64,000 bases of DNA. Source: Minisyncoccota bacterium. GTDB lineage: Bacteria; Patescibacteriota; Minisyncoccia; JBAYJV01. A program made the position numbers and the translations under genes. Where the stretch lies: the NCBI GenBank assembly GCA_041664925.1, contig JBAYJV010000001.1, positions 125,845-189,844 of the forward strand, written 5' to 3'. Positions 19,842-57,515 of the stretch are shown one piece after another (the stretch's first letter is position 1; every line of letters starts with the position of its first letter). The notes beneath the pieces are model-generated. The model made no database searches, had not been told where the DNA came from, and saw only the letters and a list, made by a program, of their open reading frames with translations.

Positions 19842-21596
19842 TTACGACTTAATGTCAGTACTTATTTTATAAAAGTCTCTTTCCCGATTATTGATAACAT
19901 AGACGCTTTTCCAATCTCTTCCTGAAGAAACAAATTCTTCCCCGGTTATATTAAGCCAGTGTTTTTGTCCTGACCCATCAATTTCGTAAACTCTTTTATC
20001 TCCATCAGCTCTTACAAAATTACTTTCCTGATAGCGATTTAATTCTGACAAAGAAATTTCTTTAACTAAAGCCCAGTTTAAGTGTCCATAAAAACTAAAG
20101 ATTTTGTCAGATAAAATATGGCGCCTGTAATTACCATTAATTATATAAACTTTATAATCATCTTTTGCCCTGACAAGGTCACCATCTTGAATGAAAGATG
20201 ATTGAGCTTGGTTGGACGAATTAATAACAGATAGCGTTGAAGTTGGAACCGATTCTGTTTCCTGATTGCTCGTAACCGAAAGACTGAAATTATTATAATC
20301 TAAAGTTTCGTCTTGATAGTGACTATTATAAATTAAATAAGGCATGATAACAATTTTTTTAAGATCACCGCCTAGGCGATGCATTGTAATTTCTCCGGTT
20401 TTGCCGTCAGAAAAATTCCAATCGGATACGAAGTAATTTCCCGCCGAATCCATTTTTAAAATTTTCGCTCTGAACTCTCCTCTGGCAGCACTGCCATTAA
20501 AACTAATAACGACTTCGTTGTTGGTATCTTTTTTGGCAGCAATTTCATACCACAAAGGCATCCATTCTTTTATGAGACCAGATCTTAAAATAGCAAGACC
20601 AGGAAAAACTTCGTATTGTGCAGTTGGAGAAACATGGAGATTGCGAAGAAAATAATTTAGAAAACCATACTCAACCTCTTGGCGAGCATCGTTTAAATAA
20701 AGACTAATCATCCAATCGCCAAAGATTTTCGTGAAATCATTGCTTCCCCCAGCGGTACGGAGAGCATTGTTTATACTATCAATACCGACATCGCTATTTC
20801 TTGTCAATTGACTGAAAAAACCATTACCATAGTGATCCGCGAAATATTGTGCAAGCAGATTTATCGGAAGATAATCATAAAGTCTTCCACGCCATTCAGT
20901 TAATGGATCTGAGGGATATTGAAGAAACTTTTCAATCCTTGCTTTTAGATTTGAATTATTATAATCCTCAGTATCATATCCTAAAAATGTTGAAACATAT
21001 TCGCCCCTAAGTTCATTAAGCCAAATGTCTTCAGTTTTAGTTTGAATTCTTTCTTTTTGATTATAGGTAATTAAGTGTTGGAATTCGTGAGCAACATAAC
21101 TTTTGAGTTCCTGATCAAATAAAAAGTCAGCGCTTAAATATATCATTTCTCTTACATTTGAAGCGCTATTTTGCGAAAGAGTCATTTCGTCGGCAGCATT
21201 AAAATATCCTCCCACGCCATCAGTTAGCTTGGTAAAGAAAATGGTAATTCTAGGATCATTGTCAATTCCAGGGTTCCAAATATCCCCAAGAAGCTGTGTT
21301 AATTTTGGATAAATTTCTTGATCAAAGCTTTTTCCCAATTTTTTTATTATTTCTTTAAGTTGATTTTTTTGCTCGAGAGAAAGTGTGTCTAAATAATCAT
21401 CCTCTATGTAATAGTAAGCTCTGTCAGATTCATAATATGATTGCGCTGTTATTTCTTCGCGATTCGTAAAATCATAATAGCTATCAACAAAAAATTTAGT
21501 ACTAGCTGCGCTTACAGAAACTGGAAGAAAATTAAAAGCCAAGCCCAGAAAAAGGGCTATTAATAAAATCTTAAGTTTTGAAAATATTCTTTTCAT
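19842..21596 (-). CDS. secreted zinc metallopeptidase-like protein (HExxH, downstream E) with C-terminal surface-anchor-like module
   Basis: 584 aa with a signal peptide. AHEFQHL...E is a gluzincin-like motif. The C-terminal ~120 aa (DGDLVRAKDDYKVYIING...RADGDKRVYEID...KHWL) is shared with two other secreted proteins in the window. Confidence 0.5.
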   Translation of the reverse strand: MKRIFSKLKILLIALFLGLAFNFLPVSVSAASTKFFVDSYYDFTNREEITAQSYYESDRAYYYIEDDYLDTLSLEQKNQLKEIIKKLGKSFDQEIYPKLTQLLGDIWNPGIDNDPRITIFFTKLTDGVGGYFNAADEMTLSQNSASNVREMIYLSADFLFDQELKSYVAHEFQHLITYNQKERIQTKTEDIWLNELRGEYVSTFLGYDTEDYNNSNLKARIEKFLQYPSDPLTEWRGRLYDYLPINLLAQYFADHYGNGFFSQLTRNSDVGIDSINNALRTAGGSNDFTKIFGDWMISLYLNDARQEVEYGFLNYFLRNLHVSPTAQYEVFPGLAILRSGLIKEWMPLWYEIAAKKDTNNEVVISFNGSAARGEFRAKILKMDSAGNYFVSDWNFSDGKTGEITMHRLGGDLKKIVIMPYLIYNSHYQDETLDYNNFSLSVTSNQETESVPTSTLSVINSSNQAQSSFIQDGDLVRAKDDYKVYIINGNYRRHILSDKIFSFYGHLNWALVKEISLSELNRYQESNFVRADGDKRVYEIDGSGQKHWLNITGEEFVSSGRDWKSVYVINNRERDFYKISTDIKS

Positions 21597-23083
21597 TTGA
21601 AGAATCGTCTCTTTATTTCAATACCCCAAAAAGCAAAAAGAATAGAAGAAATAATCGTGCTTACAAAAAGTATAATTTGAGGTTTTTGGAAAATGGTTTT
21701 TTTAAAGACTCCTGAATTGCTTGTTAATTTTATATCTCTTTGACTGTTTTTCTCTAATTTATTGCTAATTGATTTTGGAAGAATAATTCCCTCATCTGCT
21801 AGAACTTTTTTAATTTCAAAAATATTATCAATGTCGGCTGTAGTTGGAATATTGACCTGTTTTTTAAAATCTGCGCCCAAAACAACTTTAGATGAAACTT
21901 TTTTTGAGGCAACAGTACTGGCAAAAATAATTACCTGGTTTTTTGAATTAGATAGTACGCTATCCTCAACTTTTTTATCGAGAATACTTGTTTTATTGGT
22001 ATTCTTCTCGTCTAGGTAAATAATATTGCTAAATCCTGGGGTTGGGACAAGTGTCCAAAAAAACTTTTCATCTTTTCTAGCCGCAGACATTCCTAGTTTT
22101 GGCTTTTCGTAACTTACCTCATCCGCTAATTCTCCAGAGGGATATGAAAGACGGATTTTGTCTTTATCATTGTTTAAGGTGATTTTTGTAAGCGGTCTTG
22201 GCAATACCAAAAAAGTATTTGGCAAAACAAGGGTATTTTTGGGAAAAATAAAACGATGGCTACTTGTTCCTTCGTCGGCAATTTCCCATCCCGAAATATC
22301 AGCCAAATAACTGGAAAAATTACCAATTTCAATCCATTCATTTTTTTCTTCTTCCGTCAAAGGATCAGGTAAAAATTCGGATATAAAAATCGCCTGCGGA
22401 TAGACATTGACAATTAATGTATCAATGCTAGTAGATTTCCCGTCACCAACCTCAAGACTTACCACATATTTTCCAGATAATTCGTAAAAATGATCAATGC
22501 TCGTTCCTTCTTTAGAATTTCCATCTCCAAAATTCCAAAAATAAACCAGTTCGTCGTGGTCAGGATCAAAAGATTGAGAGCCATCAAAATGGACTGTTGT
22601 TGCAACATTCGTAACAATATCTTGACCCGCTTCTGCTATTGGTCGCTGATTAGCAGAACCACCACTCGTTTGAGAAGTAGAAGTCGCTGTTGAAATTGAC
22701 CCTGTTTCGGAAGTCGTAGTGGCGGTTGATGAGTCAGTAGAGGTACTCGTTGAAGGAACTTGTGGTGAGCTTGTTGAACTAACACACGCTAATCCTTCCT
22801 GTTTTATCTTAGTAAGCGTTGTTTCACCAATACCACTGACTCTTAATAAATCGTCTAATGAAGTAAAAAGCGATATATTTCTTTCCGCAATAATCTTTTC
22901 CACTGTTACGGGACCTATCTGTGTGATTTTATCTAAATTATCTGCTGGCGCCTGATTAATATTGATTTGACCCTGAAGGCATTCAGCAAAAACTTTATTA
23001 AATAAAACAAGACTGCTCACGAAAACCGCCAAAATGAGCAGAAGTTTGCAGGTTTTAACTTTAAACATTGAAACTCTTGGCAA
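21593..23083 (-). CDS. ComEA-like helix-hairpin-helix DNA-binding domain fused to a PKD domain and a lamin-tail domain (LTD), surface protein
   Basis: 496 aa. N-terminal signal/anchor, then ININQAPADNLDKITQIGPVTVEKII...VSGIGETTLTKIK (ComEA HhH pair). A Ser/Thr-rich linker follows, then a PKD-like FDGSQSFDPDHDELVYFWNFGDG, then an LTD (ISEFLPDP...EWIEIGNFS...ISGWEI). Confidence 0.65.
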   Translation of the reverse strand: MPRVSMFKVKTCKLLLILAVFVSSLVLFNKVFAECLQGQININQAPADNLDKITQIGPVTVEKIIAERNISLFTSLDDLLRVSGIGETTLTKIKQEGLACVSSTSSPQVPSTSTSTDSSTATTTSETGSISTATSTSQTSGGSANQRPIAEAGQDIVTNVATTVHFDGSQSFDPDHDELVYFWNFGDGNSKEGTSIDHFYELSGKYVVSLEVGDGKSTSIDTLIVNVYPQAIFISEFLPDPLTEEEKNEWIEIGNFSSYLADISGWEIADEGTSSHRFIFPKNTLVLPNTFLVLPRPLTKITLNNDKDKIRLSYPSGELADEVSYEKPKLGMSAARKDEKFFWTLVPTPGFSNIIYLDEKNTNKTSILDKKVEDSVLSNSKNQVIIFASTVASKKVSSKVVLGADFKKQVNIPTTADIDNIFEIKKVLADEGIILPKSISNKLEKNSQRDIKLTSNSGVFKKTIFQKPQIILFVSTIISSILFAFWGIEIKRRFFK

Positions 23084-23138: not shown

Positions 23139-23444
23139 TTATTTTTTATCCTTCTGAATTTCACTTAAGAGTCCCTGGATCTCTTCTTTATTTTCTTCAA
23201 ATAATTGTTTGAGTTCGTCTTTGTGTTTTAATAGCGCAGGCAAACTATCAAGTTGAAGTTTTTGAAGGGTTGGGTGTTTGGCAATAAATTCTTTAAATTT
23301 CTTTTCCATTTTAATCATATCAGCCGCAGTGATTCCTGAAATATCAACATTGAGCTGGGCGTGATCTAGTCCCATATTTTTCATTTGTTTTTGAATTCTT
23401 TTTTGAAGAATTTTATCTAGAAGACTCATGATATTAAATTTCAT
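23139..23444 (-). CDS. hypothetical small helical protein
   Basis: 101 aa, Lys/Glu-rich. It starts 1 nt inside the stop of the upstream gene. Confidence 0.4.
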   Translation of the reverse strand: MKFNIMSLLDKILQKRIQKQMKNMGLDHAQLNVDISGITAADMIKMEKKFKEFIAKHPTLQKLQLDSLPALLKHKDELKQLFEENKEEIQGLLSEIQKDKK

Positions 23445-49076: not shown

Positions 49077-50420
49077 TTATGAAGTCAGGTCTGTTCCGGT
49101 AGTATAGGCATCTCTATCAACTTGATTAATGATATAAATTGCATCCCAGTCATACTTTGAAGAGAAAACGCTTGCTGACATATTCATCCAGCGCTTAGCG
49201 CCGGTATCGCCATCCGGATAAAGCCTATAAACCTTAGGATCGTTAACTTTTTTGGCAACATCATTGCATCTTACCAAATCAGAAATGGTATAAGTGAGCA
49301 TTTCTGCATTGGTAATAATTTTTAAATTACTCCATTTGAGATGCTGATAGCTATCAAAGACATGAGGACTCAAAACCAACCTTCGATATTTCTTACTATT
49401 GATTAATTTCACAATATAAACATCGAATTTTTCCATACCGGGAGCATTCGATGCTCTGACAATATCGCCGTCAACAAGATGACTGTCAGGTGTGGTAGTG
49501 TCGGGAGTACTCGATCCGGTAGCACCACCAATGATTGAGAAATATGTGAAGTGAGTCGTTGTTGCAGTAATGGTATTGGTAACCTTATCAATCGTACATG
49601 AAAGTGCTATCCATTTTGAAGTAGCTGTGTCCCAGTAATATATTTTTAAGCTATTTTCATCAAGCCCTTGAATTTGGGCATCTGTATAGGTCATCGTGAT
49701 TGTTACTGCCTTGGTAAATGTCGTTAAGTTTGTTGAGCCAACTGTTGCAGTGTAATTATATAAATTACCAACAATTGTTTGTCCCGTGCCTATGCCAGCA
49801 ACCATACCTGACACAGCGCTTGATGTTTGAGCAACGGATTCAATGGCAACGGCCGTAGATGCCGTGAGAGTGTCTTTTTCTATCTTTACAGTCGCTTTAG
49901 TGCCATTGCTACCAGTCAAAGAAGTCTCTCCGCCTAATGAAGCTGTGGCAATCACCGAACCATTGGTCGTTGAAGGCATCGCTTGGGCAGGAACTCCGCC
50001 ACCACCACCACCGCTACTACTGCTAGTGCTAATTGTGTAAGCAGCAGAAGCAGTTGAAGATTGTCTATTATTAGAGTAACAAGATATCGCTGTAATTGTT
50101 TGACTAGAAGAAACTGAAATAGCTGAAGCGTAAAGAGTACCTGTGGTACAGGTAGTCCCCAAGGCGCTACAGACTGGTGTAGTGCCGTTAGCAGTATAGC
50201 AAATACCTGTTGTTCCTGCTGCAGTTAGAGTAACGCTTTGAGTTGATGTATAAGTACCAGCTGCAGGAGAAATCGTAGGAGCTGCTATTAATGTTCCGCT
50301 TATACCAGTTTCAAGTGTAGGTGATAAAGTACCTGATGCTTCAGACGCACTAACAACATCAATAACCAAAAAAGACGTCAAAAGCATCAAGCCAAAAACA
50401 TATAAAACTTTTTTTACCAT
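49077..50420 (-). CDS. secreted Thr/Ser-rich surface protein with C-terminal anchor-like module
   Basis: 447 aa with a signal peptide and poly-Gly/Ser/Thr low-complexity stretches. The C-terminal ~125 aa (HLVDGDIVRASN...VYIVKL...RCNDVAKKVNDPKVYRLY...KRWM) are homologous to the modules in 19842..21596 and 59256..62507. Confidence 0.55.
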   Translation of the reverse strand: MVKKVLYVFGLMLLTSFLVIDVVSASEASGTLSPTLETGISGTLIAAPTISPAAGTYTSTQSVTLTAAGTTGICYTANGTTPVCSALGTTCTTGTLYASAISVSSSQTITAISCYSNNRQSSTASAAYTISTSSSSGGGGGGVPAQAMPSTTNGSVIATASLGGETSLTGSNGTKATVKIEKDTLTASTAVAIESVAQTSSAVSGMVAGIGTGQTIVGNLYNYTATVGSTNLTTFTKAVTITMTYTDAQIQGLDENSLKIYYWDTATSKWIALSCTIDKVTNTITATTTHFTYFSIIGGATGSSTPDTTTPDSHLVDGDIVRASNAPGMEKFDVYIVKLINSKKYRRLVLSPHVFDSYQHLKWSNLKIITNAEMLTYTISDLVRCNDVAKKVNDPKVYRLYPDGDTGAKRWMNMSASVFSSKYDWDAIYIINQVDRDAYTTGTDLTS

Positions 50421-50496: not shown

Positions 50497-53400
50497 TTAT
50501 GATGATTGAATGCCGTAACTGGTAGAATAAGATCCACTCGATGAACCCGTCGGCACTTTCGCTTCAACCGTCACCTGAATTTGTCTACCAATTGTTGAGG
50601 CATCGGTGTCGCCAGTTAATGTCATGCCACTACTAAGAGTGCTAGCTGCTGTAATACCAATCGCACTGCCAGTTGTGCTTGCATTTGATGATTGAGCCGA
50701 ATAGAAACGCATATTATCAGTCACGGCAATCGTATTGCTTCCGCTCGTCCAATTATCAAACTTCATTTTGAAGGTCGTTTCTGAGGTCGGTACCGTGATA
50801 TTGAATGTCCATGACCAACCATCGGTTGTTGAAGCAACGCCATCTGGCCATCCACCAGCAACAGCGGCATAAGATTCCTTAGTGGTAATACTCGTTACAG
50901 CTAACGATCCATCGCCTTGAGCGACTGTCGTAAATTCTTGATCTGCCTTTGTTGTGTAGGCTGTCATAGCGTTTCCTGCGGCATCTTTGGCGCCGGAAAC
51001 CCAGATATAATACTGCGTGCTGTTATCCAAGCTCGCAACAGGATCAATCGTAGCAATATAAGTACCGGAGACATAAGTGACTACTGAATTAACTACTGCA
51101 TCCGTAGATGAGGCTCTCAATTGAACCGTGTTTGTATTGATGGTATCGGAATCCATTGCTTCAGAGAAGGTAACGGTTGGTGAAACTGTAATAGCAGTAC
51201 CTGTTGCATTATCTAACGGTGTTTGTGATAACACGCTTGGAGCGCTATCTGCTATGGTCGTAAATTCTTGATCTGCCTTTGTTGTGTAGGCTGTCATAGC
51301 GTTTCCTGCAGCATCTTTAGCGCCTGAAACCCAGATATAATACTGAGTACTATTGCTCAAGCTAGCAACTGGATCAATGGTAGCAACATAAGTACTGACA
51401 TTGTAAGTAACCACTGAATTAATTATCGCATCCGTAGATGAGGCTCTTAATTGAACAGTGTTTGTATTTACGGTTGACGAATCCATCGCTTCAGAGAAGG
51501 TAACGGTCGGAGAGACTGTAATGGCGGTACCTGTTGCATTATCTAGCGGTGTTTGTGATGATACACTTGGAGCGCTAGATGAAACCGTAATGCCTGTCTG
51601 AGACCCTGTAATGGTCGGACTGGCATTATCTGTTCCCGTTACGCTGACTCCTCCTTCAGCAGTTGTGAATTTAATCATGTCGTTAAAGAGATAGCTTCCA
51701 TTGTCACCTGCTATGAAGGTGTGTCTGCCATTACTTTGCCAGATCGGTCCAGTTGATGACGCGTCCATCCAGACAGAACCAGTATAAGCAGTATCAATAT
51801 TACTGTTAGCATCAACAGAAGCTACTGTTACATCAACAGGAGTATTGGCTGCTGGAGTGGTTGTGCAACTAACCGACAATACAGAAACTATAAAGTTTAT
51901 AGCAAGAGTCGTATCGGCCGTTGAAGTTGTTAAGGTTGAACCAACACCTGTATCAGAAGCGGTTAAGCTTAATGTGTCTTCATCGGGAGTAGTTGCCGTC
52001 AAGTTGGCTGCTGGAATTTGGACTGTCGTTAATGCCTTAGTTCCAGCCACTAAAGTACTGGTACTAGAAGTAAGAGTTAGTGAATCGCCTGTTGAGTCAG
52101 CAATAGCGATAGAGATAGTACTGACATCATCAGGATCGGTGTTGCTGTGAACATCTTTTGCTGTGACTGTTACTGAGATATTATCAGCAAATCTGACATT
52201 TGGGGAAGCTGCCGCCGAAGAAACATCAGACACCACTAATTTTGTCGCAACCACATCCAATGGGGTTGTTGTTGTGACGGCTGACATGTTACCGGCAGTA
52301 CCTAAAGCCCCATCGTCGTCGAAAGACAGGGTGATTGATGCGTCGTCAGTAAAGGTGCCATCAACGCTCGCTTTAAGCCCTGAGAAAGTGGCAATACCCA
52401 AAGTCATCGTGCTAGTTGTATTACCAACTAATGAAGTATTAGCAGTTGTTGAGGTAGCGGTAATTGTTTCTGAGCTGATACCAGTATCGGTGTTGCTGTG
52501 AGCATCGTAGGCTTTAATGACTGGCTGAGTAGTCAAGTTAACCAAGTCAACTGCGCCGCTTGGACTAGTAGTGATTGCTAGTTGAGTAGCAACTACATCC
52601 AAGGAGGTAGTTGAAGTAACAGCTGCCATATTAACGCCACCAATATCTCCGTCATCATTGAAGGATAAATTCATCGAAGCGCCATCAGTAAATGTCCCAT
52701 CAACATTAGCTTTGAGTCCTGAGAAGGTAGCAATACCTGAAGCCATGACCGCTGTCGTTGTGCCCGATACTGAAACGTTTGACGTGTCTGTAGTAGCGGT
52801 AATTGTTTCTGTGCTAACACCAGTATCGGTATTATTGTGAGCATCGTAGGCCTTAATGACTGGCTGAGTAGTTAATGCTACGGTATCAACCGCTCCACTT
52901 GGAGCAGTAGTTATTGCTAATTTTGTTGCAACTACCCCCAAAGAGGTGGTCGCGGTAACAGGTGTCATATCAACACCGCCAATACCTCCGTCATCATTGA
53001 AGGAGAAAGTGATGGTAGAACCATCAGTAAATGTTCCATCCACACTCGCTTGAAGTCCAGAGAAAGTGGCAATACCTGAAGCCATAGTGCTAGTCGTATT
53101 GCCAACGGCTGAAATATCTGTAGTTGTAATTGAGGCTGTAATGACTTCTCCCGTAACACCGGCATCGGTGTTGTCGTGAGCATCGTAGGCCTTAATGACT
53201 GGTTGACCTGTTAAGTTTACTAAATCTTCCGCACCACTTGGAGCAGTAGTTATTGATAATTTTGTCGCAACTACACCCAAGGAGGTGGTCGCGGTAACAG
53301 GTGTCATATCAACACCGCCAATGCCTCCGTCATCATTGAAGGATAAAGTAATTTCAGATCCGTCGGTAAAAGTACCATCTATACTTGCTTGGAGTCCTTC

Positions 53401-56193
53401 AAAGGTAGCAATACCTGAAGCCATAGTACCAGTCGTATTACCGACTAATGAAACATTAGAAGTTGTTGAAGTAGCTGTAATGACTTCTCCGTTAACGCCG
53501 GCATCGGTATTATTGTGGGCATCATAGGCTTTAACAACTGGTTGAGTTGTCAAGTTGACCAAATCAACGGCACCACTCGGACTGGTAGTTAAAACTAATT
53601 GAGTCGCAACTACGCCCAGTGAAGTTGTTGCGGTTGTTGTTGCCATATCAACGCCACCAATAGCTCCGTCATCGTTAAAGGAGAGTGTAATCGTAGCGCC
53701 ATCAGTAAAGGTGCCATCAACATTAGCTATAAGTCCTGAAAAAGTGGCAATACCTGAAGTCATGGTTGCTGTTGTTGTGCCCGAGACTGAAACGTTAGAT
53801 GTATCCGTGGTGGCCGTAATAACTTCCGCAGTAGCACCTGTATCAAGTGTACCATTAGCATCTTGAGCTTGAATGGCTGGTTGGGTTGTCAAGGCTACCG
53901 CATCAACTGCACCAGCTGGCGGAGTAGTGACAACTAATTGAGTTGCCTTAACGTCTGCAGTCGTAGTAGCACTTACCGCTGGAGTAGCGCTAAGATTTAC
54001 TAATCCTGAGCCTGCCACATCATCAGTAAAGATAAGTTGAACATCTTCAGCATCAGCAAAAGCCGTATAGATCATACTAGTAAAGGTAGCAATACCGTTT
54101 GAGGCCGTAGTCGTTGAACCAGCGGTAATACTACCAGCAGCATTGTCTGTCGCTGTTAAAACATCAGAATCAATATGGGTATCAATTTTTCCCTGAGCAT
54201 TAGTATAGTGAACCACCGGTACAGTCATTGATACGCCACTAATAATATTTGAAGGTTCGGTATTGACCGTAAGACCGGTCGCCAGAACATCGGCGGTTGT
54301 AGTCGCAGCATTAACTGGGGAGCCACTAAAGTCCACAGCACCACCACCCGCTGCATTGTCGGTAAAGACGAAAGTGACATTTTCCTCATCAGCAGCTGCG
54401 AAATACAGCAATCCAGCAAAATCAACTTCACCAGCTGCAGCAGAAACAGTTGTTGTGCCTGTTAAACTACCAGCTGATCCCTCTGTAATTGCAACCGTGT
54501 CAGAAGTTGTAATTGCAGTATCCACTTTATTGTCCGCATCTACATATTTAATAACCGGTTGAACCATGGAAACACCGCTAATGATACTTGCCGGTTGAGT
54601 AGTAACAAGAAGTTTGGTGGCGACCACATCAGCAGTTGTAGAGGCAGAAGTTACGGGAGTGCTTATATTAACACCACCGATTGAATCATCGGTAAAGGTG
54701 AATTGAACTGCTTCTTGATCGGCATTAACCGTATATTTCATGCCCGTGAATGTGGCAACACCGCTTGAAACAGTAGTTGTTGAGACAGCAGTAATGCTGC
54801 CAGCGGCATTATCAGTCGCCGTTAGAATGTCAGCGGTAATATCAGTATCAGTTGCATTATTAAGGTCAACATAGCGGACTATGGGTACCGTCATTGAGAC
54901 ACCGCTAATAATAGTTGAAGGCTGAGTATTAATCGCAAGAGCGGTTGCCACGACATTAGCTGTTGTGGTGGCCGCATTGACTGGAGAACCATCGAAAGCT
55001 TTAGCACCACCAGCATTATCGGTAAAGGTAAAGGTTACACTCTCCTGATCAAGAGCCGCCGTATAAATCAATCCCGAGAAGGTAGCGACACCAGATGTAG
55101 CAGAAGTTGTTGTAGCGCCCGCCGTTAATGATCCTGCTGATCCTTCTGTAATAGTAACTGTATCGCCAGTTGTAATGGCAGTATCTACTGTACCGATAGC
55201 ATCTACATATTTAACAACCGGTTGAACCATGGAGACGCCACTAACAATAGTTGCTGGTTGAGTAGTGACAAGAATCCTGGTTGCTACAACATCTGAGGTT
55301 ACGCTATTTGAATGGACATGTAAGGTGTCGCCGGTAGCAGTGGTTATGAAAGATTCTCCGTCGACAACAGCCGTATATTTAATACCAGAAAAAGTAGCCA
55401 CACCACTAACTGAAGTGGTTGCCAGAGTTCCACTAAGATCACCTGCGCCATCTTCTGTTAGAGTAATTGTCTCTGCAAAATTAGTATCGGTATTACCATA
55501 AGTATCTCTCGCAGTAACTTCTGGTTGTGTCAAAGAAACGCCACTGACAGAGCTAGCCGGCTGAGTTGTAAAAACAAGTTGCGTAGCTGTGCCAGGGGTA
55601 AGAGTAACTGCCGCAACATTGGTTTGAGCTGTTTCATCGGTTGCATTTGTGTCAATCGTAAGAGTTCCTGTGGCTCCAGAGGTAGTTGCATTTTGAATAC
55701 CTACTAAAAATCTAAAAGTTGTCGTGCCCGCGCTTAAATCATAAGCATTTAACAGTGTCACGGTAACCGTTCTAGCTGAAGCACTACCGACAACATTATC
55801 AACCGCCCGGTTTACGCCATTAACACTGACCATACCAGTAACAACACTACCGCTTCCATTGTTATTATTAATAGCAGAGCCAACGCTTCCTAAGTCGCCA
55901 TCAGTAATAACATAACCAGTCGGAAAAGTGACTGTAATGGTATTAGCAGTATTAGTCGTATTGGTAAGAAAAGTTGTGTTGTAATCAGCGCCAGTAGCGC
56001 CAACTACTAAGTCAGCTGCTGCGTTTCCCGCAACAACTCCAGAAGAAACTGTTGCCCCGACTGGTAACGGATTTGCCAATAAAAAAATCCCCCCTACAAG
56101 GAGAAACATTATGGTAAATAGCGCCGAGGTCTTTCTTGTATTTTGAGTTCGCATAATTGTTTTTGATAGAAAATTAATTATTTTAGTAAACAT
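50497..56193 (-). CDS. giant surface protein (1898 aa) with N-terminal signal/anchor, more than 10 tandem Ig-like (~105-113 aa) repeats and two C-terminal Big_5/SbsA-type Ig domains
   Basis: Thr/Ser/Ala/Val-rich. Repeats include VVATKLVVTTQPASIISGVSMVQPVIKYVDA.... The two C-terminal copies PSVSSQTPLDNATGTAITVSPTVTFSEAMDS...YYIWVSGAKDAAGNAM have the Big_5 pattern. DNA-level tandem repeats are evident. Confidence 0.7.
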   Translation of the reverse strand: MFTKIINFLSKTIMRTQNTRKTSALFTIMFLLVGGIFLLANPLPVGATVSSGVVAGNAAADLVVGATGADYNTTFLTNTTNTANTITVTFPTGYVITDGDLGSVGSAINNNNGSGSVVTGMVSVNGVNRAVDNVVGSASARTVTVTLLNAYDLSAGTTTFRFLVGIQNATTSGATGTLTIDTNATDETAQTNVAAVTLTPGTATQLVFTTQPASSVSGVSLTQPEVTARDTYGNTDTNFAETITLTEDGAGDLSGTLATTSVSGVATFSGIKYTAVVDGESFITTATGDTLHVHSNSVTSDVVATRILVTTQPATIVSGVSMVQPVVKYVDAIGTVDTAITTGDTVTITEGSAGSLTAGATTTSATSGVATFSGLIYTAALDQESVTFTFTDNAGGAKAFDGSPVNAATTTANVVATALAINTQPSTIISGVSMTVPIVRYVDLNNATDTDITADILTATDNAAGSITAVSTTTVSSGVATFTGMKYTVNADQEAVQFTFTDDSIGGVNISTPVTSASTTADVVATKLLVTTQPASIISGVSMVQPVIKYVDADNKVDTAITTSDTVAITEGSAGSLTGTTTVSAAAGEVDFAGLLYFAAADEENVTFVFTDNAAGGGAVDFSGSPVNAATTTADVLATGLTVNTEPSNIISGVSMTVPVVHYTNAQGKIDTHIDSDVLTATDNAAGSITAGSTTTASNGIATFTSMIYTAFADAEDVQLIFTDDVAGSGLVNLSATPAVSATTTADVKATQLVVTTPPAGAVDAVALTTQPAIQAQDANGTLDTGATAEVITATTDTSNVSVSGTTTATMTSGIATFSGLIANVDGTFTDGATITLSFNDDGAIGGVDMATTTATTSLGVVATQLVLTTSPSGAVDLVNLTTQPVVKAYDAHNNTDAGVNGEVITATSTTSNVSLVGNTTGTMASGIATFEGLQASIDGTFTDGSEITLSFNDDGGIGGVDMTPVTATTSLGVVATKLSITTAPSGAEDLVNLTGQPVIKAYDAHDNTDAGVTGEVITASITTTDISAVGNTTSTMASGIATFSGLQASVDGTFTDGSTITFSFNDDGGIGGVDMTPVTATTSLGVVATKLAITTAPSGAVDTVALTTQPVIKAYDAHNNTDTGVSTETITATTDTSNVSVSGTTTAVMASGIATFSGLKANVDGTFTDGASMNLSFNDDGDIGGVNMAAVTSTTSLDVVATQLAITTSPSGAVDLVNLTTQPVIKAYDAHSNTDTGISSETITATSTTANTSLVGNTTSTMTLGIATFSGLKASVDGTFTDDASITLSFDDDGALGTAGNMSAVTTTTPLDVVATKLVVSDVSSAAASPNVRFADNISVTVTAKDVHSNTDPDDVSTISIAIADSTGDSLTLTSSTSTLVAGTKALTTVQIPAANLTATTPDEDTLSLTASDTGVGSTLTTSTADTTLAINFIVSVLSVSCTTTPAANTPVDVTVASVDANSNIDTAYTGSVWMDASSTGPIWQSNGRHTFIAGDNGSYLFNDMIKFTTAEGGVSVTGTDNASPTITGSQTGITVSSSAPSVSSQTPLDNATGTAITVSPTVTFSEAMDSSTVNTNTVQLRASSTDAIINSVVTYNVSTYVATIDPVASLSNSTQYYIWVSGAKDAAGNAMTAYTTKADQEFTTIADSAPSVLSQTPLDNATGTAITVSPTVTFSEAMDSDTINTNTVQLRASSTDAVVNSVVTYVSGTYIATIDPVASLDNSTQYYIWVSGAKDAAGNAMTAYTTKADQEFTTVAQGDGSLAVTSITTKESYAAVAGGWPDGVASTTDGWSWTFNITVPTSETTFKMKFDNWTSGSNTIAVTDNMRFYSAQSSNASTTGSAIGITAASTLSSGMTLTGDTDASTIGRQIQVTVEAKVPTGSSSGSYSTSYGIQSS
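50927..51590 (-). repeat. two ~330-bp near-identical tandem DNA repeats (Big_5 domain units) inside the giant gene
   Basis: GTCGTAAATTCTTGATCTGCCTTTGTTGTGTAGGCTGTCATAGCGTTTCCTGC recurs with a 330-bp period at about 90% identity. Confidence 0.7.
52300..53900 (-). repeat. array of ~340-bp tandem DNA repeats (Ig-like units) inside the giant gene
   Basis: GCATCGTAGGC(T/C)TTAATGACTGG recurs at about 52503, 52841, 53183 and 53521. Confidence 0.65.
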
Positions 56194-56446
56194 GATTTTA
56201 TTTTTTGCTGCTGGTCTTGTTTTCTGTTATTTTTTTAGGTCGACCCCAAAACAATAAAACAAGACTTATCGCAGACTTAAAAAGGATATTAACGTTTAAA
56301 TTAAAGTTAAACAAACCAAATGGAAATAGATTTCCATCGGGGAAAGCAGAGTCTATAAGCGTTAGCGAATATCTCTTCTTTTACCTCCATTATACCACAA
56401 AAGAAAATAGAGGGTTGTGGATAACTTTAAACAAAAAATCCCGTCT

Positions 56447-57433: not shown

Positions 57434-57515
57434 AGAAATTCAGTGAAAAATCACTAACCTTAACATCCTATCACAAATATTCAAATTGTCAAGCAAAAAT
57501 GGGTAATATGTGCTT

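Follow-up and report, generated by a model that had tools for sequence, protein, structure and literature searches.

Periscope Proteins, among them SasG, Aap, Rib, Sgo_0707/SHIRT and CdrA (Whelan et al. 2021, PMC8201768), are secreted proteins in which a long tandem array of β-sandwich domains lies between two terminal domains, and relatives differ in repeat number by whole units, with recombination between repeats as the evident mechanism. Their repeats are highly identical at the DNA level and their copy number shifts between closely related strains; the published screen required repeats of more than 50 amino acids (aa) with at least 80% identity, and a repeat number that varies among proteins of 90% identity or more (PMC8201768). 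Fibrillar adhesins (Monzon and Bateman; PMC8286594, PMC9210967) are characterized by a repeated immunoglobulin (Ig)-like stalk and distinct terminal domains, evolve fast and are hard to annotate. Here we describe a giant gene that shares the secreted β-sandwich array, the whole-unit number differences and the repeat recombination of the former, and the general build of the latter. It occupies 50497..56193 on the minus strand of a 64,000-nucleotide window (the whole stretch of DNA that was analysed) from contig JBAYJV010000001.1, and the open reading frame (ORF) list and translation give a product of 1898 aa, in agreement with an earlier note on this DNA that had drawn attention to its repeat arrays.

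The host is assigned to Candidatus Paceibacterota (Parcubacteria, within the candidate phyla radiation (CPR) or Patescibacteria), and is an uncultured, ultra-small bacterium; the SecA gene of the window matches a protein annotated as belonging to this group with 100% identity. CPR bacteria presumably live attached to other cells; to our knowledge almost none of their attachment proteins has been characterised. Parcubacteria genomes carry diverse candidate attachment proteins (PMC4508563). The evidence presented below makes it probable that the giant protein is a Sec-secreted fibrillar surface protein with a variable Ig-like stalk that is remodelled by slow recombination, and that it does not act as a high-frequency length switch.

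Architecture of the giant protein

Unit borders were set by a recurring V-[VLK]-A-T motif together with hidden Markov models (HMMs) built from the protein's own units. The protein consists of a signal peptide, an N-terminal domain (N-domain), 14 tandem β-sandwich modules (five A, five B, X1, X2 and two Big_5) and a C-terminal domain (C-domain), so that the stalk is built of four different module subfamilies. The Sec-type signal peptide (aa 1–47, 56053..56193, as for all of the gene on the minus strand) has the n-region RTQNTRK, an 18-aa hydrophobic core and the c-region PVGA↓TVSS; homologues show the equivalent junction AxA↓TVSGG (ASA or AHA, and VGA here), and the signal peptide is probably cleavable. 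The N-domain (aa 48–203, 55585..56052) has a conserved stretch of about 25 residues at the start of the mature protein and a hypervariable core. It is followed by the five Ig-like A units, which start at aa 204, 302, 414, 523 and 636 (53953..55584; defined by the unit HMMs and the direct-repeat families D4, D6 and D7) and in which a 663-bp super-repeat of two units occurs as A2A3 and again as A4A5, and by the five Ig-like B units of 113–114 aa (339 bp) that start at aa 748, 861, 974, 1087 and 1200 (52255..53952). X1 (aa 1314–1423) and X2 (aa 1424–1536) are diverged β-rich modules (51586..52254) for which an Ig-like fold is assumed; HMMs made from the window segments detect both in each of the three closest relatives (L001, L002 and L003, described below), and they are 95–98% identical to their L002 counterparts at the aa level. 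The A units, their super-repeat, X1 and X2 are additions to what the earlier note had described. The two Big_5 units of 110 aa (330 bp) each lie at 50926..51585 with their boundary at 51255/51256, and were parsed at aa 1537–1646 (unit 1) and aa 1647–1756 (unit 2). Their assignment, made earlier from the letters alone, is borne out by Pfam (PF13205, E=1.3e-26, 93.8 bits against a cut-off of 23.6), which finds two domain stretches with the best at aa 1649–1756. The conserved C-domain, the hallmark of the family, spans aa 1757–1898 (50500..50925).

Pfam recognises the two Big_5 units alone, and the remaining 12 modules go unmatched, as do the terminal domains at both ends: the N, A, B, X1, X2 and C segments gave no match in Pfam (each non-Big_5 segment, E up to 10), NCBIfam or the PDB sequences. 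Nor did the PDB sequences yield a meaningful match to the full-length protein or to a profile of the A and B units. In predicted structures the single units model as Ig-like β-sandwiches, and among their fold matches SbsC scores no better than GH2 Ig domains, invasin or adhesin extenders. The C-domain model is a complete β-sandwich with a predicted local distance difference test (pLDDT) score of 93. Searched as a profile, this domain is found in 771 cluster representatives (clusters at 50% identity), of which 481 reach E ≤1e-30, and no Pfam model covers it; it defines a large, uncharacterised and previously undescribed domain family. It is always terminal, standing either at the C-terminus of proteins that are mostly 1000–2500 aa long or straight after the signal peptide; the proteins of the latter kind carry the stalk domains Bact_surface_Ig-like, HYR, MBG, YDG, Flg_new, cadherin-like and Big_2/3/4/13.

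The composition of the protein is very acidic and rich in small residues (T 19%, A 12%, S 11%, K+R 2.4%, a single Cys). The GC content of the gene is 45%, against about 34%, and the excess falls at codon positions 1 and 2, whereas the GC content at third positions (GC3) is 0.32, as in its neighbours. The GC3 value rules out horizontal acquisition as the source of the high GC, which is instead due to the content of Thr, Ala, Gly, Ser and Val, and the gene appears to be native to the genome. A database protein, P0001, is 100% identical but follows a shorter gene model of 1870 aa; the possible starts are thus ATG 56193, ATG 56154 (the one used by the homologue P0002) and the P0001 start.

Divergence and recombination of the stalk units

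Tandem Repeats Finder (TRF) reports two arrays in the gene, one with a period of 339 bp (4.0 copies, 75% matches, 52447–53793) and one with a period of 330 bp (2.0 copies, 86% matches, 50927–51577); their scores, 1006 and 1301, are far above chance. A gap-free repeat search returned five in-register 339-bp copies that are 66–74% identical to the reference copy, and gave 87% for the 330-bp pair. Pair divergences were obtained as codon-aligned Nei-Gojobori estimates of synonymous (dS) and nonsynonymous (dN) change. Over all pairs of B units the nucleotide identity is 63–80% and the aa identity 60–82%, with dS of 0.62–2.01 and dN/dS (ω) of 0.11–0.34, the best pair being B2/B3 (80% nucleotide, 82% aa, dS 0.67). 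The A units are comparable, with 74% nucleotide and 75% aa identity and dS 0.89 for A2/A4, and 68%, 65% and 1.20 for A3/A5. The closest pair is that of the Big_5 units (85% nucleotide, 88% aa, dS 0.53, dN 0.077, and a proportion of synonymous differences, pS, of 0.38). Exact matches extend for at most 53 nt in the Big_5 pair and 41 nt in B2/B3, and never exceed 27 nt in the other pairs.

The DNA repeats of the giant gene thus appear to be old and diverged, their nucleotide similarity being due largely to purifying selection on the protein and not to recent duplication. This modifies the earlier description in several respects. The array of at least four units of about 340 bp placed at 52.3–53.9 kb is real and holds five units in register (52255–53952), and the two units of about 330 bp at 50.93–51.59 kb do form a tandem pair (50926–51585); however, the pair is not about 90% identical in nucleotides but 85%, and the 339-bp units, at 63–80% and with exact runs of 41 nt at most, are far from the near-identity claimed for them. 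The proposal that nucleotide identity implies recent duplication or gene conversion does not hold either, since the dS between repeats (0.5–2.0) equals or exceeds the dS to L002 (0.34–0.58).

The three closest relatives allow repeat divergence to be compared with divergence between lineages. L001, whose protein is P0002, has a complete gene of 1322 aa that is about 79% identical to the window in nucleotides and encodes five A units, two B units, X1, X2 and no Big_5 unit. L002 is cut 14 codons before the stop, is about 86% identical over the gene and about 92% over the flanks, and has the same set as the window (five A, five B, X1, X2, two Big_5). L003 is cut within A3, is about 88% identical, and has five B units, X1, X2 and one Big_5 unit. 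The search of relatives for other copy numbers that the earlier note had suggested was therefore successful in L003 and L001, and the four loci differ in length only by complete units that preserve the frame. When the conserved C-domain is taken to define a wider family, 15 of its 120 top-ranked homologues are 1043–2308 aa long with 2–9 A, 0–5 B and 0–3 Big_5 units. The compared lineages are about 0.4–0.5 apart in dS, and this length variation is therefore not variation within one population; it is seen between lineages that are 79–88% identical in nucleotides.

Against L002, the domains show 86–98% aa identity and dS of 0.34–0.92, with the exception of the N-domain (65% aa), A3 (70% aa) and the two Big_5 units (dS 1.02 and 0.89); the ω of the stalk modules other than A3 is 0.02–0.18. 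The B units of the two loci are positional orthologues (92–98% aa) and do not cluster by genome. With A3 and the Big_5 units set aside, each stalk unit is only 35–82% identical to any paralogue, below its identity to the same-position unit of L002. This 1:1 positional orthology places most of the duplications before the split of the window and L002, and the array appears to have been stable since then, with no sign of array-wide concerted evolution. Between L002 and L003 the identity of the Big_5 units is only 76–81%, and the difference of two versus one unit therefore lies between old alleles and is no fresh deletion.

The Big_5 pair behaves differently from the B array. Its within-genome dS of 0.53 is smaller than the dS to the positional orthologues of L002 (1.02 and 0.89), and in a comparison of the four sequences 14 sites, mostly in the middle of the unit, favour positional orthology whereas 12, mostly at the ends, group the units by genome. 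The 3' end of unit 1 (51257..51309, minus strand) is identical over 53 nt to the matching tract of unit 2 (50927..50979, minus strand), a run with P=0.004 given 49 mismatches in 330 nt. Its states are derived, being absent from all three Big_5 units of L002 and L003, and it is probably a short gene-conversion tract or, equivalently, a partial homogenisation. The earlier note had held that synonymous divergence of the repeats without concerted evolution would speak against its proposal. That is the pattern of the B array, and the Big_5 pair partly escapes it because of the derived 53-nt tract and the lower within-genome dS.

Mosaic units are found elsewhere in the family. The first part of unit b1 of P0002 matches B1 in 36 of 40 residues and B4 in 25 of 40, whereas its last part matches B4 in 33 of 41 and B1 in 25 of 41 (Fisher p=2e-4 at the best breakpoint, uncorrected for about 25 possible breakpoints). 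A single-crossover origin of the two B units of L001, as a B1/B4 hybrid plus B5, was considered and rejected: b1 fits, but b2 does not, being nearer to B2 and B3 (78% and 76% nucleotide) than to B5 (71%). In L002 the unit at the A3 position is mostly A5-like (88–90% nucleotide identity to A5 versus 58–65% to A3) with a central A3-like patch, and the A5 unit of both L002 and L003 opens with about 20 A3-like residues. Finally, L002 9370–12955 and L003 6–3588 (window-equivalent 54624–51605) share 3020 identical nucleotides that run from the first A4 codon to the end of X2 (aa 524–1530), both ends coinciding exactly with domain borders, whereas outside this core the two loci, which come from sister metagenome samples, are 77–79% identical and have two versus one Big_5 unit. 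This may reflect an exchange of modules, with domain borders as the crossover points, between co-existing strains, or else a change of strain by the assembler; on either reading several alleles would be present in that community.

Stalk length therefore evolves by in-register gain and loss of whole units, and units exchange segments with non-adjacent paralogues, by homologous (unequal or ectopic) recombination between internal repeats. Such events would be rare and on an evolutionary timescale, because the repeats are 63–85% identical, their synonymous sites have diverged and positional orthology has been kept. Recombinational size variation, as the earlier note had put forward, is thus upheld as far as whole-unit number differences and mosaics go, but it looks ancient and slow, not fast switching. 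Donor sequences of the pilE/pilS or vlsE type are not found within the window: blastn and tblastn of the giant gene against the rest of the 64 kb gave no match, and silent cassettes and a template like that of diversity-generating retroelements were rejected there, no similar DNA or protein being present.

The ends of the protein differ in their evolution. The C-domain is 95% identical to that of L002, whereas the N-domain is only 65% identical in aa (61–66% in nucleotides, dN 0.28, ω 0.36) and is nearer to the more distant L001 (73%) than to L002, an allele-like pattern. Immediately upstream, 56006–56401 on the minus strand, which comprises a leader of about 190 nt and the signal-peptide coding region, is 94–98% identical in nucleotides to L002, with a dS of 0.06 in the signal-peptide region. 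We observe that the boundary of conservation between this segment and the N-domain, from 94–98% to 61–66%, is very sharp. Rfam, searched with the whole window, has no family that matches, so that the conserved leader belongs to no known class of riboswitches or leaders. A putative extended -10-like promoter, TGgTATAAT, can be read at 56389..56397 (minus strand), some 190 nt 5' of the ATG and immediately past the terminator hairpin of the epimerase gene; it has no -35 element and for that reason was missed by a consensus scan.

The partner gene and its neighbourhood

The next gene, at 49077..50420 on the minus strand, encodes a 447-aa protein with a signal peptide, CHB_HEX_C_1/Fn3_assoc domains (Pfam) and a C-terminal domain of about 125 aa. 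At five independent loci a giant gene is followed, after about 10–120 nt, by the gene for a CHB_HEX_C_1/Fn3_assoc protein of 357–543 aa that ends in a wall-binding module, namely PG_binding_1 in L007, L008, L009 and L012 and SH3_3 in L010 (where the entry for the partner gives CHB_HEX_C_1, Fn3_assoc and PG_binding_1 plus SH3_3). From this conserved adjacency, the partner is probably the wall-binding anchor of the giant protein. The domain of about 125 aa occurs in three secreted proteins of the window, all on the minus strand and 33–42% identical: at the C-terminus of the 447-aa protein (49080–49472), at the N-terminus of a 1083-aa protein (62028–62420) and at the C-terminus of the 584-aa ORF 19842..21596 (19869–20192). 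It has no Pfam or NCBIfam match, and a word-indexed search gave just six short homologues. It is a candidate wall-binding module because it holds the position that PG_binding_1 or SH3_3 takes in the orthologues.

The 1083-aa protein is the product of the second large secreted ORF, 59256..62507 on the minus strand, which the earlier note had correctly picked out as a second large surface protein. Its tail (…SDSSASSHDTTTADWSGDYLVKSLPVQNSLNW) closely resembles that of P0356, a protein that has the C-domain of the giant protein at its N-terminus. Terminal modules seem to be shared and shuffled among CPR surface proteins. A 25-kb surface-glycan cluster at 23444–49017 adjoins the giant gene, which is located between it and other secreted-protein genes, and is convergent with the surface-protein genes. 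It includes a 737-aa Wzy_C/O-antigen-ligase-like protein, a Bac_transf initiating transferase and a Wzx flippase as well as glycosyltransferases of families GT1, GT2 and GT4, four methyltransferases, two UDP-sugar dehydrogenases and several epimerases or dehydratases. The cluster could glycosylate surface proteins, the giant protein included.

Two further features of the region were observed. An FG-GAP-repeat ORF of 407 aa (57747–58970, minus strand) has a GC3 of 0.49 versus 0.26–0.34 for all of its neighbours, and a segment of about 1.7 kb around it (57492–59174) is absent from the otherwise collinear L002; this segment, which separates the epimerase gene from the gene for the 1083-aa protein, has the look of foreign DNA that was inserted recently. 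Adjoining the surface-protein region, 21593–23083 (minus strand) encodes a 496-aa protein with a ComEA-like HHH_3 DNA-binding motif together with PKD and Lamin-tail domains, an unusual architecture for extracellular DNA binding.

Relation to known surface proteins and alternative explanations

The giant protein belongs with the fibrillar-adhesin and Periscope-like proteins as an ordinary modular surface protein, and the earlier view of it as a secreted surface protein rich in Ig repeats is supported. Unlike in Periscope Proteins, only one pair of its units reaches 85% nucleotide identity while most are at 63–75%, synonymous sites are saturated and positional orthology is stable; it has no LPXTG or other known anchor, and its stalk contains four module subfamilies and not one. 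Only Big_5 1/2 and B2/B3 pass the high-identity threshold of the Periscope screen, the other pairs being at most 75% identical in aa. The tandem-domain stalk of fibrillar adhesins is present, and elsewhere the C-domain co-occurs with catalogued stalk domains of that class (HYR, MBG, YDG, Flg_new, cadherin-like, Big), but its terminal domains match no known adhesive or anchor family and its host is an uncultured CPR bacterium. In contrast to the Geobacillus S-layer proteins SbsA and SbsC, it has no SLH or secondary-cell-wall-polymer (SCWP)-binding N-terminal region and its module number is highly variable. It also differs from invasin/intimin and the Lap/RTX extenders (Big_1/BIg) in having no β-barrel or type 1 secretion anchor and no C-type-lectin or RTX tip, in its monoderm-like CPR envelope, and in A and B units that fall under all Pfam thresholds.

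Among the alternatives, an active switch of the Periscope type, in which RecA-dependent unequal recombination would now be producing frequent length variants in the population, is quite unlikely. The Big_5 pair (88% aa, 85% nucleotide) and B2/B3 (82% aa) do pass the 80% limit of the Periscope screen (PMC8201768), and L002 and L003, though identical over 3 kb, have two versus one Big_5 unit, with both contigs breaking in the gene as expected under strain heterogeneity. Recombination by RecA in E. coli has a minimal processing segment of roughly 25–30 nt, which the exact runs of 53 and 41 nt exceed. However, 12 of the 14 modules are less than 80% identical to any other module, the dS between repeats is 0.5–2.0, the five B units are strict positional orthologues in the window and L002 and so show no turnover since the split, and the similarity of only 76–81% between the L002 and L003 Big_5 units points to old alleles. 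That the number differences and mosaics arose as assembly artefacts, by repeat collapse in short reads or by strain switching, is very unlikely. It would account for L002 and L003 both ending within the gene and for the breakpoints of the identical core at conserved inter-unit junctions with shared k-mers, but the units differ by at least 15% in nucleotides, so that collapse is not to be expected, and the arrangement of five A, five B and two Big_5 units was assembled independently in the window and in L002, which are 86% identical. Moreover, the gene of L001 is complete, its frame is unbroken and its flanks are intact; at least 15 independent assemblies, 120-kb contigs of NCBI metagenome-assembled genomes among them, show the variation across the family; and the 53-nt tract is present in the window itself.

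We consider it unlikely that the protein is an S-layer (glyco)protein which self-assembles into a two-dimensional lattice over the cell and is glycosylated by the adjoining cluster. The composition (acidic, Thr/Ser-rich and almost Cys-free) would suit this role, as would the 25-kb glycan cluster alongside with its Wzy_C/O-antigen-ligase-like, Wzx and initiating transferase genes, and Big_5, which we take to be an SbsA-type Ig-like domain, would point the same way. S-layer proteins have also been predicted in Patescibacteria (bioRxiv 10.1101/2024.05.28.596244). Set against this, Pfam searches (E up to 10, any segment) found no SLH, CWB2, SCWP-binding or other anchoring module; GH2 Ig domains, invasin and adhesin extenders match the fold of the units as well as SbsC does; 14 similar beads whose number leads to a more than two-fold length variation (1043–2308 aa) suit a stalk better than a lattice of fixed geometry; and the C-domain co-occurs with typical adhesin stalk domains. 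The S-layer suggestion of the earlier note accordingly finds no specific support, the fold matches being generically Ig-like.

Returning to the fibrillar surface protein, the stalk would hold one terminal domain tens of nanometres off the cell. The fast-evolving N-domain is favoured as an exposed tip that would face a ligand or antigens, and the conserved C-domain as the cell-proximal end, for which the product of the next gene may be a non-covalent docking partner; the orthologous loci encode at this place proteins that end in interchangeable peptidoglycan- or cell-wall-binding modules. Several points weigh against such a picture. Neither a recognised anchor (LPXTG, SLH, transmembrane segment, LysM or other) nor a recognised adhesive domain was found in the giant protein, and its suggested localisation and function are read from composition, signal peptide, fold and synteny. 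The fold matches of the C-domain are generic and weak (Z ≤8.0), and comprise the N-domain of GH123, carbohydrate-binding-module (CBM)-like modules and chaperone-usher pilins; the CBM-like matches would suit a glycan-binding tip, and a place at the distal, functional tip, instead of an anchoring role, is just as conceivable for the C-domain, which elsewhere stands straight behind the signal peptide. L001, L002 and L003 are contigs of short-read metagenomes, two of which break inside the giant gene, some of the mosaic junctions fall where the sequence between units is most conserved and an assembler may pass from one strain to another, and the copy-number differences are compatible with gain as well as loss.

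The failure of the claim of rapid length switching makes the general importance of the locus modest. It nevertheless illustrates clearly the build and the evolution of such a protein, with conserved ends, a stalk of variable length, a hypervariable tip, in-register module exchange and a syntenic wall-binding partner, and it defines two widespread domains that have no family model, the C-terminal β-sandwich and the putative wall-binding domain of about 125 aa. As a tentative proposal, which we regard as rather doubtful, the giant gene and its partner may form a conserved two-gene module of Paceibacterota, in which a variable stalk with an allele-like tip is docked through its C-domain to a partner with a swappable wall-binding end (PG_binding_1, SH3_3 or the domain of about 125 aa). 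If so, the fibrils with which CPR episymbionts attach to their hosts would be anchored non-covalently by a system of a new kind, and co-existing strains would exchange tip alleles and stalk modules at the borders of domains.

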